A stretch of DNA of 62,668 bases, counting the filler, from Dirinaria sp. TL-2023a (lineage: Eukaryota): assembly GCA_051941275.1 (NCBI GenBank). It is 38 parts of 38 records of this genome, joined end to end, with 100 filler letters (N's around TTAATTAATTAA, not from the genome) between each part and the next. Parts side by side here need not be neighbours in the genome. Positions count along the whole stretch, not along the records: positions 15,083 to 16,647 come from JAVEBF010002646.1; 37 more parts are not named here. One strand, 5' to 3'. The translations under genes and the position numbers were made by a program. Positions 1 through 61,297 of the stretch are shown here, piece after piece (the first letter of the stretch is position 1; the number at the start of each line of letters is the position of its first letter). The notes beneath the pieces are model-generated. The model saw only the letters and a list, made by a program, of their open reading frames with translations, was not told where the DNA came from and did not search any database.

Positions 1-1581
1 CTATTACACTATCACGTCTTTCACACAAATACTGCGTCGACGAATAATCGACGCATACGATCTTACAGTTCTAATCACTTCAATCTTTTGAAGAAAAAGA
101 CTCGAAGTGTAATAGTGATGACGTTCTCGCGTGAAATGTCAGAGTCTCAACAATCGAAGGACGATTTTGAAGTCGTTTCGAGCGATCGTTCGTTTCTCGT
201 CGTCGCGACTTTATCAAACGACGCTGAGTCAAACAACAGCTCGAATATCTTACGAGATGAGCTCGCTCAACGCATTCACGACTTGAAATCTCAAAATCAG
301 CTGTTACGAAATCAACAACGATTGCGAGATCTGAAAAAAGAGAATCGTCAGCTAAATAGCAATCTCTTGTCTGAATTCGCCGATTCGGCGACGTCTCTCT
401 CTGTTAGAGACAAAAGCATTAAATCAGAGAAAATGCGTCTCTACAAAGAAGAGAGTCAGAGCGAGCATACTAGATGATTTAGAGACGCGGAAGTTAGATA
501 TCTGATGAGCCCGGAGTATTTTCCAAATGATCGCACCAAGATCGTTTTTTGTATGCAATCGTTAGAAGGTGACGCTGCCACTCAGTGGTATCAGGCCACT
601 AAAAATGGTATCGACATTGGCAGCTTTACTTATAAGCAGTTCGAAACCTTTCTTTTAGATCTTGTCGCGGATCCGGCGACTCGTCGGCTCGTTGCGTACG
701 AGCGCTGAAAGTCGGCTCGACAGCGAAACGATCAAAAAGTAACTGTTTTCAAGGCATACCTGAAAGATCTGAAGGGTCATTTGCCTGCGTTCTCCGAAGA
801 GCATCGAGCGAATATTTTTCTAGCGAAGCTTAAGTCGAATCTTAAGACTAAGCTTCTTAGCACGGGTACTGTGCTTAAAACTAGGGAAGAAATATTGGCT
901 CAGGCGATCATGATGGAGAGGACTATGGAGCGTCAGCACACCATGGGTGGGGGTCACCGAAGCACTAACAAGTCCGGGGGACAAAAATCTAAGGACCGCC
1001 CAGAACGTACCGCCGCTTCGGAGCCGGCGAGTCTAGGCGGTAAGTCGAAAAATCAAAATCGACCAAATCAAAGACCAAATCAAAAACGTCGCAACGTCGA
1101 TGACTCTGCGAATAAAGGGTCAGACGCTTGTTATAATTGTGGCGAGTTTGGACACTGGAGTAAGTCGTGTCCAAAACCCCCAAATTCAGGCATTGCCGTA
1201 GGCGGCGCCGTGAATTCAAAAAACTCCGGCGCTCCGCAAGCGCCTCAGAAGCGGAGCAAGAAAGACCAGTTGAGGCGGTCGACCCCATCGTAACTAAGGG
1301 ATGGGCGACACTTCAGGGAGATAAGCGTCAAATTAGGGCTCTTCTGGATCCCGGAGCAAAGCTAAATTTAGTTAACAACGCGTTTGTTGTTCAGTGGGAC
1401 TTACCGCAGGTAGCCGTCGCCCTACCGCTGCCGAGATTCCTAGACGGAGAGAGCCGCTATTGTTATGACGCTTATGAACTCATCTACTGACTAGTTGACT
1501 CTTGAGGACAAGGTCGCGAATGTACTACCCTGTTTTATGCAGTTGATTTTGTCGATCTCGATTTGATTTTGAGCATGCTCA
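1..1581 (+). mobile_element. Ty3/Gypsy LTR retrotransposon fragment: LTR 3' end (1-67), disrupted gag with CCHC knuckle, start of pol protease
   Basis: CYNCGEFGHWSKSC zinc knuckle; ALLDPGAKLN protease-like motif in the -1 frame; in-frame TGA stops at 475 and 706; 1-110 matches 16533-16647. Confidence 0.9.
1218..1257 (+). promoter_or_regulatory. Programmed -1 ribosomal frameshift signal (A AAA AAC plus stem-loop/pseudoknot) at the gag-pol junction
   Basis: Heptamer 1218-1224 is in the gag frame and the protease ORF is in the -1 frame; GGCGCT/AGCGCC (1228-1244) and GCTCCGC/GCGGAGC (1231-1257) pair. Confidence 0.8.
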
Positions 1582-1681: not shown

Positions 1682-2761
1682 ACTGGTCTGGCACTATACC
1701 ATGCAGTATCTCAAGGAAACGCGAAATTGGTTCAAACGCTTCTTGACAACGGTGCCAATGCGAACACAAGGCCTTCTTGCGCCAAGCCCGCTGTAACTCG
1801 AGCGGTTGAAAACAACGACTGGCACATCGTGCAGATGCTCTTGGAAAGGGGCAGGCCCGATCTTGAAGCAGCGCCGCCAGCAGGACCAACAGCTCTCTAT
1901 GTAGCTGTATCTAAAGGCTTCGAAAAGCTCGTAGAATTGTTGTTGAAGTACGGCGCAGACGTGAAAGCAAAGCCTTCAGGAGGCGAGCCGATGCTCTATA
2001 AAGCTACCTCGAAAGGATATACCGAAATCCTCGAAATGCTCCTTGAAAGCGACTCTGTGGATGTTGACGCAACCCCGCCAGGTGGAAGCCCTTCTGTATA
2101 CCGAGCGTACGAAAAAGGAAACGTAAAAGCCATGGATCTGCTTCTCAAGAAAGGTGCTGATCCTAATGCGAAGCCTCCCGGAGGCAGCACAGCTTTACAC
2201 AAAGCAGCTGATAAAGGAGAAATTCAAGCGACCCAGTTGCTGCTTGAGTACGGTGCCGACCCCGATGCCAAGCCAAGCGGTGGAAGAACTGCCTTGTATG
2301 GTGCTGCGTCAAAGGACCGTGAAAATCTTGTTCGCATGCTCATAAACTATGGCGCTGACATCAACAAGATGCCATCGGGCTGTGACTCCGCTCTGTGGGC
2401 CGCGGCCGGGAAGGGCAATCTTCCTATCGCCAAGCTTCTCCTCGAGCACGGGGCAGAAGTTGACACTGCGGTGAGCAATACGGCGTTATGGCACGCTGCG
2501 AAGAGAGACGACGTACCCATGGCTCGCTTGCTGCTCGATCACGGCGCAGATCCAGATAACAGAGTGAGTGGCGGAGAAACGGCGCTGATGGTTGCCGCGT
2601 CGAAATGCAATGTTGCCATGGCCCGGCTGCTGATCGGCTACGGTGCCGACCCGCATCGAAAGATGAGTGGCGGTGAGACACCGTTTTCTCGCGCAGGCAA
2701 GAAGTCCCATGAGGAGGTTTTGAGGGTAATGTTGGGTGCGGAGCCCGCGAGGTCGAAATGA
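1682..2761 (+). CDS. Ankyrin-repeat protein, 5'-partial (about 10 repeats)
   Basis: 33-aa periodic (G)xTALxxAAxxGxxxxxxLLLxxGADxN repeats; frame open from the contig edge. Confidence 0.93.
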   Translation, partial: TGLALYHAVSQGNAKLVQTLLDNGANANTRPSCAKPAVTRAVENNDWHIVQMLLERGRPDLEAAPPAGPTALYVAVSKGFEKLVELLLKYGADVKAKPSGGEPMLYKATSKGYTEILEMLLESDSVDVDATPPGGSPSVYRAYEKGNVKAMDLLLKKGADPNAKPPGGSTALHKAADKGEIQATQLLLEYGADPDAKPSGGRTALYGAASKDRENLVRMLINYGADINKMPSGCDSALWAAAGKGNLPIAKLLLEHGAEVDTAVSNTALWHAAKRDDVPMARLLLDHGADPDNRVSGGETALMVAASKCNVAMARLLIGYGADPHRKMSGGETPFSRAGKKSHEEVLRVMLGAEPARSK

Positions 2762-16304: not shown

Positions 16305-16599
16305 AGAGTCAGCGTCGAAAGATTGAATCTCGAGACTAATTAGAAGTCAGTGAGCGATTGACGCTTATAGAGTATTGTGTCTACGAGCGCTCGTGATCCG
16401 TCAGCGCGGAGCTCGTCATGATGAGACAATGTTGACGCTCGCGATTAAGTATAGAGGATCACTCACTTTTTCGAAGAAAAGTCCATAGTGATTAGTTCTA
16501 GCAGAAACTACAGTATGAGGTAGCTATATAATCTATTACACTGTCACGTCTTTCACATAAATACTGCGTCGACGGATAATCGACGCATACGATCTTATA
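16305..16599 (+). repeat. LTR family A, heavily mutated copy, followed by the same internal leader as position 68 onward
   Basis: Colinear with 57874-58145 and 1-67; 16305-16330 matches 62645-62668. Confidence 0.9.
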
Positions 16600-16753
16600 G
16601 TTCTAATCACTCCAATCTTTTTAAGGAAAAGACTCGAAATGTAATAGNNNNNNNNNNNNNNNNNNNNNNNNNNNNNNNNNNNNNNNNNNNNTTAATTAAT
16701 TAANNNNNNNNNNNNNNNNNNNNNNNNNNNNNNNNNNNNNNNNNNNNGGTTGG

Positions 16754-20247: not shown

Positions 20248-20984
20248 ATCTGTTATTGTTTTTCAATCAGATCAAACTGTTTCGTCAGACTCTGCTGTTT
20301 GACATATGTCTCGCGCAGCTCTTGTTTCAACTTTCTTCGTTGTGTTTTCAGTCTTTTTCATTTCGTCACGTTAAGAGAAATCAGATCGCACGAGATTGTC
20401 TGACAAATACACTCGACGCATTTTTTCACATCGTCGCTCACATAGCATTGTTTCTCGAACTTTGAACAGTATCGACAAAGACGCATTACGATGACGTTAT
20501 CTTTTAAAAAATGAACGCGAGCACGACGACGAATAAAGAAAAACATAGAGATCATGTTCTCGAGACGAGAACTTGAGAGAGAGAGAATGATGTTACGAGT
20601 CAGACTGACGTGATCTTATATACGCACTCAGTCGAATCAGGAAGCATGTTAAGTCGATGTTCATAACGTCAAAACTATCGAGCAGTGACTCATGAAACTC
20701 GACATGATGAGCAGAGTGAGCAGTGACTCATGAGGCTCGACATGATGAGCATAATGAGCAGAGATGCTCAAGATGCTCAGACAATTGAGCTTTATAGTGC
20801 TCAGAGTGCTCAGATAATTGAGCATCGTAAGCATGAGAAATCTCATTGTGTATATAGATCTTCAACACGACGCTTTTCTAGCATCGTGTTCAACATCTTT
20901 GCAATAGCTATCTACTGCTCAGAGTAACTTGTACCTTGTTGTGATATTGTCATATCACCTCGAAGACACCCGCTGTTCCTTGAT
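20248..20984 (-). mobile_element. Hypermutated repeat encoding a six-Cys (Zn2Cys6-like) plus coiled-coil ORF remnant
   Basis: CRYC-x6-C-x8-CVEC-x6-C in 20358-20555; 20435-20984 recurs inverted at 47416-47967. Confidence 0.65.
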
Positions 20985-26859: not shown

Positions 26860-27842
26860 CTAGAAGCTGGTCTTGTACCAGTCCTCCCCGCTAAGATCCT
26901 CCATCCCGCTGACGTGAAACGCATCGAACTCGTCTCCGGCGAAAGGATCGTAATAATACCCCTCTAGGCTCAAGGGGTCAAAGGCGAGGTTATGGGGATA
27001 TAGGCCCACATACTGGTCGAGCTCGTCTAAGCTGGGCCACGAGATATTGAGATGCTGATCTTGAGGTCCGACAAAAGGCTCATCGGTAGAGGGCAGCTGG
27101 GAAGAAGTGGCCATTGTGATTGATTCCAACGGCCCTTGCTCCGCCTCTCCCGCGTTAGCCTTGCCCGCGTTAGCCTTGCCGAGCCCATTGGTATAGGAGT
27201 TCTCGAGAACATCCTCGACCGACTTGTTTGTCGTAAGCATATGTTGATCGAAGCGTCCAGTGTTGCAGTTGAGCTTCTGGTAGAGGGTTGTGCGGCCTTC
27301 GGCGTCGACAACGAAAGTCCATCCAAGGGTTTCGAGGTACACTTCAGGAGTTACCATCTCAACAAAGCCGGTGTTGACTTTAAGGAACTTTTGAAGAAGT
27401 TCGCGGTCGCGGATGTCTTTCTCATCACGAATGATAGAATAGGCTTTAGCCAGAATAGCCCACTTAGCCTTGAATGGGTCGTGCTCCCAAAGCTTGGACA
27501 AGAAAGGTGAGTTCTCCTTCTGTTGCAAGCCTTTGAAGATCTTTGCATAGTACGCTGCAAGCCTATTAGGCTATGCTTCGTTCGAAGCGAATGGAAAGGA
27601 TTTCATAACTTACCGCGGAAGGCAAAGAAGGAGTTGAGAGGTCGTTGAGTGTTTCGCTTTGGTAGAGCGCTCAATTTGACGCCGTATTTGTTCGGAAGGC
27701 GATGGTAAATTTTCTTACCCTTCTCGCGGGCCTTGAAAGCAGATCGAACTTTTGGCGTGGTTGAGCGAACGATATTGGTGGTGGCACGTTTCTCGGGGAC
27801 CAATTGGCCGGTAAGGCGCTGGTGAGTCACTTGGCCCATCAT
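26860..27842 (-). CDS. MAT1-1-1: Mating-type alpha-box transcription factor; intron 27613-27555; about 307 aa
   Basis: RPLNSFFAFR^AYYAKIFKGLQQKENSPFLSKLWEHDPFKAKWAILAKAYSIIRD alpha-box with an intron at the usual position (GTAAGT, CTAAT, CAG). Confidence 0.95.
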
Positions 27843-47415: not shown

Positions 47416-47967
47416 ATCAAAGAACGAGTGTCTTCGAGATGATATGACGATATCACAACAAGATACAAGTTACTCTGAGCAGTAGATAGCTATTGCAAAG
47501 ATGTTAAACACGATGCTAGAAGAGCGTCGTGTTAAAGATCTATATATACAATGAAATTTCTCATGCTCACGATACTCAATCATCTGAGCATTCTGAGCAT
47601 TATGAAGCTCAATTGTCTGAGCATCTTGAGCATCTCTGTTTATTCTGCTCATTATGTCGAGTTTCATGAGTCACTGCTCACTCTGTTTTTTATGTCGAGC
47701 TTTATGAGTCACTGCTCAATAGTCTTGACGTCATGAGCATCGACTTGACATGCTTTCTGATTCGACTGAGTGCGTATATAAAATCACGTCAGTCTGACTC
47801 GTAACATCATTCTCTCTCTCTCTCTCAAGTTCTCGTTTCGAGAACATGATCTTTATGTTTTTTTTTCATTCGTCGTCGTGCTCGCGTTCATTTTTTAGAA
47901 AATAACGTCATCGTAATGCGTCTCTGTCGATATTGTTCAAAATTCGAGAAACGATGCTGTGTGAGCG
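47416..47967 (+). repeat. Second copy of the six-Cys repeat element (inverted relative to 20435-20984)
   Basis: Direct colinearity, mostly transition differences. Confidence 0.9.
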
Positions 47968-57873: not shown

Positions 57874-58145
57874 ATCCCGAGGCTAACTAGGAGCCAGTGA
57901 GCGGTTGACGCTTATAGGGCATTGTGCCTACGAGCGCTCGTGACCCGCCAGCGCGGGGCTCGTCACGGTGGGGCAATGTTAACGCTCGCGGTTAAGTATA
58001 GGGGACCACCCACCCTTTCGGGGGGGGTCCTTAGTGATTAGTTCTAGCAGGAACTACAGTATCAGGTAGCCATATAATCTATTACACTGCCACATCTTTC
58101 ACACAAGTACTGCGCCGGCGGGTAACCGGCGCATACGACCTTATA
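57874..58145 (+). repeat. LTR family A, little-mutated copy
   Basis: Colinear with 16327-16599 but retains CC/GG runs. Confidence 0.9.
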
Positions 58146-58609
58146 GTTTTTCCAGTGCCAAGCTGTTGCAACGATTTCGGGAACGCTAATAGGGGTATTC
58201 AGATTAGGAATTTCGAAAATCCTGGAATGCTGGAAGACCTGGAAGACCTTTTTCTTGGAAGACCTAGAACAGCTGTTTTCTCTGTTTTATCATGAGGACC
58301 CTCATCTGACATTTATCAGAAAGACTCCTGATTCAGATGTTTCATTAGATAATGGCGGCTCTTTACTGCAGTAGCGTTAGATAGAATAATCGTCCTATCG
58401 ACACGATCGAGGATTTGTCAGTAGTTGAAGATGTCTCGAAAAAGCCTCAAATACTACGTCGTTCATAACGTCTATTTTCTCTTTCTTCACGCGATGACCT
58501 TCGAGAGTATCACCTCGTCGACATCTATGCGATGATCTTCGAGAGTATTATCTCGTCAACATGTATACGATGACTCGTCTTAATTCTAGAGTAATAGAAG
58601 GTAAGGAGG

Positions 58610-59406
58610 TGTTATGATACTTTGACCCTTACGACCTAGTGACTTATTACGTGAGATGGGTGAAAGCTTTCCCAAGGTTCTCTGGGGTCAGTAAGACCCA
58701 AGCGGATACTCGAAAACTTCTAAATGATTTGATATCATCGCTCTATAAGCGCTGCGTAGACTTCAGTATAATATATCCGCAATACTGCCAAGTGATTGCG
58801 GAGTCGTATAGAATAAAGAGACCATTCTCATTTCGAGAACTTGAGTTTCTCAGTAATTAGTCTTGATAGTTATAGACTTCTTGTTTCTCATACTGTTGCA
58901 CATTGCCACATAACCTAGCTAGTACTTGATTTTCATAAGAAAATTCTTACTAGCATAACAATTCTAATTACTCTCCTTCTAAGGGTGATGATTCGTATAC
59001 AGTATGATAGAAACAATCCGACAAGAACGTGTCGCGTCGCGGTCTGCAAGTGTGCGTGATTTGAGCGAGCAGCTAGACGAGAATCAGCAACATGAAGATG
59101 TTCTAGACGAGATGATAAATACATCGCATGAAGATGCATCACTCCGCGACTCTGCCTTTAATGGTCGATCTTCTGTCATCTTGACGGCTTTGGACGCACA
59201 ATTGGCACAAGTCATACGCGAACGCGATGAGCTTCGAACGAAGAAGATGAAACTTCAAAGAATTCAGATAAAAATTAAATCTCTAAAACAAGCCGCGACA
59301 AATCTGCAAGCCGCTGTTGACACGACGTCGAGCCGAGATGAAGACGACGACGTTGAGATCGTCCCCGAATTCGAAGTTGGGACGAGAATTGCTCGAGAGA
59401 TAAAAC
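58610..59406 (+). mobile_element. LTR family B followed by a gag-like coiled-coil ORF (59004 onward)
   Basis: TGTTATGATAC start matches 8621 and 61297 copies; the downstream ORF runs to the contig end. Confidence 0.75.
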
Positions 59407-61137: not shown

Positions 61138-61297
61138 GTACTGAAGTCTACGCAGCGCTTATAGAGCGATGACATCAAATCATCTAGAAGTTTCCGAGTA
61201 TCCGCTTGGGTTCTACTGACCTCAGAGAATCTTGGGAAAGCTTCCACCCATCTCACGTAATAAGTCACTAGGCCGTAAGGGTCAAAGTATCATGACA
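61138..61297 (-). repeat. LTR family B, 5' part, abutting a truncated family D LTR
   Basis: Matches 8462-8621. Confidence 0.85.

Follow-up and report, generated by a model that had tools for sequence, protein, structure and literature searches.

Transposon copies in the genome of the lichen mycobiont Dirinaria sp. TL-2023a have lost cytosines to C>T mutation almost exclusively where the cytosine is followed by a second one (CpC), with both strands being hit and the changes being made after the element has integrated. We observed this pattern in a 62,668-nt stretch of the assembly GCA_051941275.1 (hereafter the window), where a long terminal repeat (LTR) at 16327..16602 had drawn attention to it, and in a retrotransposon family from an independent metagenome collection, that is, in at least two unrelated data sets. 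CpC-targeted C>T mutation of transposon copies is thereby confirmed as an observation; it behaves in a tract-like and saturating manner and is confined to sequence derived from transposable elements (TEs) lying beside normal genes. Repeat-induced point mutation (RIP) represents a textbook fungal genome defence, which in Neurospora follows the context order CpA > CpT > CpG > CpC. We put the probability at roughly 70% that a RIP-type defence with 5'-[C]C specificity (the bracket marking the mutated base) acts on repeated DNA in this lichen-forming ascomycete.

The window is a pseudo-molecule of 38 contigs of 1531-1581 bp each, ordered from longest to shortest and joined by 100-nt linkers (N44 + TTAATTAATTAA + N44). 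Because the joins are artificial, distances and neighbourhoods across linkers carry no meaning. The contigs are short leftovers from the lichen mycobiont bin, which explains their richness in repeats. The heavily mutated LTR copy (16327..16602, plus strand, contig 10) is 84% identical to a little-mutated copy of the same LTR on a separate contig (57874..58148, plus strand, beginning at the edge of contig 36), and since the sequence downstream of it runs on into contig 1, this copy probably represents a 5' LTR. There, a third, partial copy (1..115, plus strand), comprising the LTR end and downstream sequence, is 93% identical to 16533-16647 and 83% identical to 58079-58148; compared to contig 36, it shows 12 transitions and 0 transversions, eight of the changes being at CpC. 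With the 57874 copy as reference, the alignment of the two long copies spans 276 columns and contains 42 substitutions and one indel. Of these substitutions, 38 are C>T or G>A (18 and 20, respectively), the remaining four consisting of two A>G changes, one T>A and one C>G, and while 38 positions keep C or G in 57874-58148 where 16327-16602 has T or A, only two show the reverse. The earlier note's description of almost purely C>T and G>A changes on both strands is thus borne out. The two types are intermixed along the LTR (19 runs vs 20 expected), without the strand asymmetry of APOBEC3-type editing.

We next normalised the C>T changes to the available sites on both strands, using the less-mutated 57874 copy as reference. 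Mutation affected 30/46 CpC sites (65%), as compared to 3/27 CpA (11%), 3/35 CpT and 1/41 CpG sites, yielding an odds ratio of 25.7 for CpC against all other contexts (Fisher p=1.5e-13). A previous hand count of about 26 CpC, 3 CpA, 3 CpT and 1 CpG changes agrees with this recount once a G-run is restored. Mutation strikes the first (5') C of the dinucleotide, as the middle C was changed in 8/12 ACC and 9/12 GCC but 0/11 CCG positions, and none of seven TCG sites was altered.

The direction of change could be read from a retrotransposon gag relic on contig 15 (23397..24954, minus strand) that is almost free of CC and GG. The contig has dinucleotide odds of 0.07 for CC/GG, 1.78 for TC/GA, 1.66 for CpG and 0.49 for TpA, and the 519 codons of the relic include no Pro, no Trp and four Gly, with TGA accounting for five of its eight stops. 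A word-indexed protein search with the relic (P0091) returned nothing at E<=0.001, while an exhaustive HMMER search retrieved 250 relatives with a median composition of 6.2% Pro and 4.4% Gly. When compared to 45 normal homologs, the relic has no Pro in the 13 columns of conserved Pro, where 7 of 12 aligned residues are Ser, Leu or Phe (Val also occurs), and at the 11 conserved-Gly columns 7 of 10 aligned residues are Asp, Glu, Asn, Ser or Arg. Conserved Gln is still Gln in 4/6 columns, and conserved Arg is Arg or Lys in 12/14. Pro and Gly have therefore been lost while Gln was kept, meaning that cytosines were lost by C>T change and that the CAA and CAG codons, the classic RIP targets, were left untouched.

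Among the matches listed, 11 of 149 other relatives are likewise nearly devoid of Pro and Gly, yet retain Gln and Arg (P0095, P0097, P0099, P0100, P0109, P0114, P0131, P0153, P0158, P0176 and P0223). These predicted proteins from public protein sets are 101-344 aa long, with 0-1% Pro and 0-1.7% Gly, and share a mutual identity of 19-59%, save one pair at 87%. They are dead gag genes. As CpC-type mutation generates few stop codons, gene callers retain such dead frames as 'proteins'. One of them, P0099, belongs to a set of 10 paralogs present in ENA only.

For an independent data set, we ran a gag alignment of nine normal relatives plus the Pro/Gly-free P0099 against metagenome contigs, an alignment of the Pro/Gly-free proteins alone being too divergent for scanning, and obtained 48 gag-bearing loci. 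In many of these, the whole locus has CC/GG odds of 0.24-0.6, TC/GA odds of 1.4-1.6 and TpA odds of 0.47-0.68. Nineteen loci carry one and the same LTR retrotransposon of 5586 bp with LTRs of 273 bp; ten of them hold it at full length, and another locus, a 99.96% duplicate, was excluded. A 30-nt conserved core of the window LTR had no match in the metagenome contigs. The 19-copy alignment comprises 5587 columns, of which 4820 are invariant, 759 differ by transitions only and just eight contain a transversion. Polarised by majority, the changes amount to 486 C>T and 307 G>A, with a further 110 T>C and 159 A>G in the apparent reverse direction (1062 transitions in all) and nine transversions, and C>T mutation per site and copy reaches 14.7% at CpC, as compared to 1.02% at CpG, 0.80% at CpT and 0.23% at CpA. 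In 258 of the 269 apparent T>C or A>G changes, the C allele lies in a CpC context; these reverse changes are mis-polarised, representing ancestral cytosines that survive in few copies. A>G editing in the opposite direction is ruled out by the majority polarisation together with the loss of Pro and Gly relative to homologs. We also applied a second polarisation, taking C or G as ancestral in every C/T or G/A column. By this measure, 657/713 CpC sites (92%) are mutated in at least one copy, vs 18/706 CpA sites (2.5%), 23/721 CpT sites and 61/602 CpG sites, and mutated cells (site x copy) make up 37% at CpC vs 0.3% at CpA. In both data sets, the normalised CpC rate thus lies far above that of CpA, the comparison that the earlier note had proposed as a check.

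The base 5' of the target had only a weak effect (ACC 17.0%, CCC 13.8%, GCC 12.9%, TCC 16.8%), all four NCC contexts being far above the NCA contexts (0.08-0.36%), in disagreement with the 5'-neighbour choice of APOBEC3-type enzymes. Similarly, TCG was changed in just 1.05% of cells, and the CpG/TCG loss typical of basidiomycetes is seen neither here nor in the window LTRs. The base at position +2 has a mild influence on the rate (50% with A, 45.5% with G, 36% with T and 17% with C), and on these rates a symmetric target of the CCG/CHG type was rejected. UV damage was also discarded as a cause, as T[C] and [C]T contexts are spared and genes are spared.

Individual copies differ in their mutational load, with the number of mutated targets ranging continuously from 61 to 496 of 713. 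Every full copy contains both C>T and G>A changes (for example, 284 vs 212 and 165 vs 178), so that the strand symmetry of the window pair holds in this family as well. Strand clustering is mild: runs tests on 11 copies gave p-values from <0.0005 to 0.29, with six below 0.05 (the lowest three being <0.0005, 0.004 and 0.009). The interiors of L007, L010, L013, L019 and L023 are unevenly converted: tracts of about 1 kb in which 80-90% of the targets have changed adjoin tracts with 0-30%. In several copies, some of these tracts occupy equal element positions, which may reflect common ancestry or pairing with partial copies.

An element starts out with two identical LTRs when it inserts, and their divergence therefore records what happened afterwards. 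In nine full elements, comparing the 5' and 3' LTR of the same element revealed 102 differences, all transitions and 101 of them in CpC/GpG context; a tenth element, after realignment, displayed nine LTR mismatches, again all transitions. As LTRs of single elements differ almost only at CpC, the changes were made in resident DNA, after integration. Within elements, the LTRs have diverged by 2-6% and show no transversion at all, which marks the elements as too young for even one ordinary substitution. Because these LTR pairs each lie on a single contig, the concern that the compared copies might stem from different organisms in a mixed assembly is removed. The least-mutated copy, L001:241-5826, has 61/713 CpC targets changed and retains frames of 398, 532, 552 and 225 codons with just two stops, located in pol; the 5586-bp family has probably been active very recently. 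Relative to this copy, 156 stops were gained in the others, 148 by TGG>TGA and four by CAA>TAA. Among the amino-acid replacements, P>S (474) is the most frequent, followed by T>I (316), G>E (250) and A>V (217).

Other repeats in the window carry the same signature at different stages. A second LTR-type repeat, family B, occurs at 58610..58838 (plus strand, contig 36), 8393..8621 (minus strand, contig 6) and 61138..61297 (minus strand, contig 38). The first two copies are 92% identical and differ by 18 transitions and one transversion, 11 of the changes being at CpC, and the graded series reported previously is indeed present at homologous positions, where contig 6 reads TCGGGAAC, contig 38 reads TCGGAAAC and contig 36 reads TCGAAAAC. 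A more advanced stage is represented by a repeat common to contigs 13 (20435..20984, plus strand) and 29 (47416..47967, minus strand; contig CC/GG odds 0.10), of which both copies are already nearly stripped of CpC. This pair differs by 43 transitions vs two transversions, and only two shared CpC sites remain. The differences fall on CpT (20), CpA (15), CpC (5) and CpG (3); with CpC nearly exhausted, they indicate that contexts in the window genome rank as CpC >> CpT, CpA, with CpG last.

At the level of whole contigs, CC/GG odds were reduced to 0.07-0.57 in 8 of the 38, with contigs 15 and 29 being the most extreme, whereas the 10 contigs taken as genic (by Pfam gene hits or a GC content of about 50%) ranged from 0.85 to 1.12. 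The same eight contigs have TC/GA odds of 1.24-1.78 and CpG odds of 1.20-1.66, while TpA reaches just 0.49-0.71 and is thus not raised. They include contig 5 (6716..8292, CC/GG odds 0.54, one long minus-strand frame with five stops), contig 26 (41519..43057, CC/GG 0.36, TC/GA 1.57, TpA 0.55) and contig 32 (51338..52872, CC/GG 0.57). The count of TCG plus CGA is modestly raised in CC-poor contigs, at 19-35 per kb vs 11-22. TE interiors had been described as both CC/GG-poor and TCG/CGA-rich; the depletion stands for these eight contigs, and the enrichment must be toned down to a modest one. Mutation is accordingly confined to repeated, TE-derived DNA, single-copy genes being spared. On the genic side, an ankyrin-repeat open frame of 359 codons (1682-2758, plus strand) lies on a gene-type contig with normal CC content and represents a repeat-rich gene without sign of CpC mutation. 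Another contig, 1.55 kb in length, contains an open reading frame for MAT1-1-1 (alpha-box; 26863-27570, minus strand) with a MAT alpha-1 HMG-box domain, which is 100% identical to a protein of the metagenome-assembled genome (MAG) of Dirinaria sp. TL-2023a. Its next best matches, at <=53%, come from other lichen-forming fungi, and the idiomorph flanks are missing from the contig.

In the metagenome relative, the elements are flanked by kilobase blocks of 22-35% GC without any CC or GG. The longest CC/GG-free runs are L017:1-5430 (5430 bp), L024:1039-5269 (4231 bp) and L034:1-3679 (3679 bp), with 25-31% GC. For comparison, shuffled sequence would be expected to contain about 247 CC plus GG per 5 kb. 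One CC-free block holds an RT_RNaseH relic in which TGA provides all four stops in the 300-codon window scanned. When we searched the CC-free blocks for DNA-transposon relics by scanning three low-stop frames, only this LTR-element RT_RNaseH was identified. Borders to genes are sharp: in L010, no more than about 1 kb separates a CC-free block from an ascomycete gene for AP-3 delta adaptin, whose CC odds are 0.83-1.07. In contrast to the CC-poor contigs of the window, the old CC-free blocks have CpG odds of 0.41-0.55 and CpA odds of 1.5-1.6. The earlier proposal that the process spares CpG consequently holds for the window, where CC-poor contigs keep high CpG odds and only 3/43 late changes fall on CpG, but not for the old metagenome blocks. 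This difference could reflect a second process, such as decay of CpG methylation, or a difference between lineages.

We also asked how the pattern scores on standard RIP indices. The most mutated sequences have TpA/ApT values of 0.50-0.75, (CpA+TpG)/(ApC+GpT) values of 1.06-1.86 and composite indices of -0.3 to -1.3. Within this range, the CC-free blocks are at 0.54-0.75, 1.72-1.86 and -1.0 to -1.3, respectively, and window contigs 15, 29, 6, 13 and 26 have composites of -0.32 to -0.77. As the earlier note had anticipated, TpA/ApT-based indices under-call the pattern. Some loci of the scan behaved differently. L003 and L004 are in a more canonical RIP-like state (GC 0.31-0.33, CpA odds 0.72-0.74, TpA/ApT 1.08-1.19, composites +0.26 and +0.41) and differ from each other by 142 transitions vs 22 transversions with a mixed spectrum (CpA 10%, CpC 11.5%, CpG 5%, CpT 5%). 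L014, L025 and the loci with Ga03075xx names (L027-L048) are gag-bearing elements of other fungi, in which the CC odds are near 1.05 and those of CpG range from 0.55 to 0.8. As a negative control from the same scan, a TE pair of another fungus showed 81 transitions vs 76 transversions with a CpG bias; elements of other fungi undergo ordinary decay with CpG loss. Given the different spectra of L003/L004 and of the control pair, the method detects other patterns where they are present.

The process shares with RID- and DIM-2-dependent RIP of Neurospora crassa the near-pure C:G>T:A transitions, which affect repeated DNA on both strands, the saturating, tract-like action post integration, the AT-shifted relic blocks with sharp gene borders and the dependence on the 3' base. 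In contrast to Neurospora RIP, it prefers CpC, the least favoured context there, and leaves CpA nearly untouched; its product is TpC/GpA rather than TpA, rendering the TpA/ApT and composite indices negative, and stops arise via TGG>TGA rather than from CAA or CAG. Lineage-specific shifts of the target dinucleotide have precedents in the MATE elements of Aspergillus nidulans (mixed CpG/CpA) and in the TCG hypermutation of Microbotryum, as far as the available text of the RIPCAL paper describes them (PMC2621366). Both of these shifts go towards CpG, whereas here CpG was changed at 1/41 sites in the window and in about 1% of cells in the 19-copy family.

Considering these data together, a RIP variant with altered specificity, as suggested in the earlier note, is supported at the sequence level by the CpC context, the action on both strands and the single-contig LTR pairs. 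We envisage that repeat copies (so far LTR retrotransposons and their relics) would be deaminated from C to T after integration, on both strands and in an enzyme-driven burst. The base on the 3' side of the cytosine would define the target, with 5'-[C]C-3' corresponding to G[G>A] on the opposite strand and contexts other than CpC being struck 15- to 120-fold less often. Successive rounds would then clear every CC and GG, so that Pro codons become Ser or Leu, Gly codons Asp or Glu and Trp codons TGA, until blocks of 25-39% GC are left that are rich in TC/GA rather than TpA. Reading the 3' neighbour is a property of cytosine-5 methyltransferases, whereas AID/APOBEC and toxin-type deaminases choose by the 5' neighbour. 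The methyltransferase-like 3' dependence leads us to take as the candidate agent a RID/DIM-2-type enzyme of the C5-methyltransferase fold with an altered, CpC-directed target-recognition preference; duplication or homology would serve as its trigger and the phase before meiosis most likely as its time of action. In available sections of a report on another lichen-forming fungus, RID and DIM-2 homologs are described (PMC12542154).

Several points weigh against this interpretation. The CpA/TpA signature that defines RIP is absent, with CpA mutated at 3/27 and 18/706 sites and the indices being negative. All identifiable mutated sequences are parts of LTR retrotransposons (gag, RT_RNaseH, LTR), and the process may thus be tied to retroelements rather than to repeats generally. 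The second-tier contexts differ between the window (CpT, CpA > CpG) and the metagenome relative (CpG > CpT > CpA), and more than one process may contribute. Finally, the window data consist of short contigs from a MAG, and the source taxon of the metagenome relative is resolved to Ascomycota only.

Against this background, alternative mechanisms need to be considered. A heterochromatin-directed DIM-2-like enzyme could methylate CpC in silenced TEs, with 5-methylcytosine being deaminated during vegetative growth, spontaneously or with enzymatic help, and with neither meiosis nor homology sensing involved. Such methylation-coupled decay would account for changes restricted to TE-rich blocks with sharp gene borders, for the 3'-neighbour dependence, which suits a methyltransferase, and for the additional loss of CpG in the old blocks of the metagenome relative, as in methylated DNA. 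It would also resemble the Dim2-dependent mutagenesis of Zymoseptoria tritici, where the cytosine methyltransferase reportedly makes C>T changes in repeats more frequent (PMC8016269). Nevertheless, we judge it unlikely, given that single-element LTR pairs diverged by 2-6% with 0 transversions and only 1/102 changes outside CpC, that the family as a whole accumulated 1062 transitions vs nine transversions, and that tracts converted at 80-90% of their targets lie beside tracts at 0-30%. Transition purity and tracts point to bursts rather than to clock-like decay, although an enzyme-driven mitotic process is still compatible with them.

The restriction of identified targets to LTR retroelements would also suit a deaminase unrelated to the RIP machinery, either AID/APOBEC-like or acting on double-stranded DNA, with transposon DNA or the intermediates of reverse transcription as its substrate. 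APOBEC3G likewise prefers CC when it deaminates C to U in retroelements; its target is the 3' C of the dinucleotide in minus-strand cDNA, which yields one-strand GG>AG changes. However, here it is the 5' C that is edited, the 3' neighbour decides and the 5' neighbour has little effect, which is the opposite of APOBEC-type selection. In addition, the strands are about equally hit in every full copy with changes interspersed, while cDNA editing would leave G>A on a single strand. Differences at CpC also separate the two LTRs of an integrated element, and kilobase blocks at zero CC/GG need many rounds on resident DNA; an unrelated deaminase is therefore quite improbable. We give very little credence to an artefact, be it mixed organisms in the metagenome bin, errors of sequencing or a transposon lineage that is poor in CC by nature. 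The suspicion is understandable for a window of chained 1.5-kb MAG contigs in which the compared LTR copies lie on different contigs, but the signature is present within single contigs, recurs in the independent metagenome collection and in the Pro/Gly-free proteins (11/149 among the matches listed), and grades continuously across copies, from 61 to 496 of 713 targets. Moreover, comparison with protein homologs reveals the lack of Pro and Gly to be a loss and not an original absence. We thus favour the RIP-type defence with 5'-[C]C specificity. Whether lichen-forming ascomycetes run a repeat-directed mutator with near-absolute enzyme specificity for 5'-[C]C, as would be exemplified by the Dirinaria-like genome and the metagenome ascomycete (lichen-forming or not), appears evenly balanced to us.

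The full-text literature that we searched, which did not extend to surveys in subscription journals, contained no description of CpC-dominant RIP, and an earlier description is possible. The RIPCAL paper defines a CpC>TpC index and, in its available text, reports dominance for CpA, CpG and CpT, with none being CpC-dominant (PMC2621366). A 2025 kingdom-wide survey states, in its accessible part, that RIP-like defences share a CpA preference. A 2021 survey of Ascomycota used CpA/TpA-based RIP indices, and the terms 'Lecanoromycetes' and 'CpC' are absent from its main text. Lichen genome papers, in the passages available, call RIP from GC content or with RIPper, without analysing context.

The enzyme that deaminates cytosine in RIP, and the way in which it reads context, are still unsettled. 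The pattern described here inverts the canonical specificity and is far sharper, with 92% of CpC vs 2.5% of CpA sites being affected, and it escapes standard index-based detectors by returning strongly negative scores. If our interpretation is true, CpA/TpA-based surveys have systematically missed a RIP-like defence in lichen-forming ascomycetes, and the enzyme would be a natural specificity variant that could reveal which protein deaminates in RIP and reads the context. If the process is general in lichen fungi, maps of RIP prevalence would need to be redone in a context-agnostic manner, and gene callers would go on emitting long Pro/Gly-free 'proteins' from dead transposons, given the few stops made. 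In that case, comparing the target-recognition regions of RID and DIM-2 between CpC-type and CpA-type species would directly test which enzyme does the chemistry.

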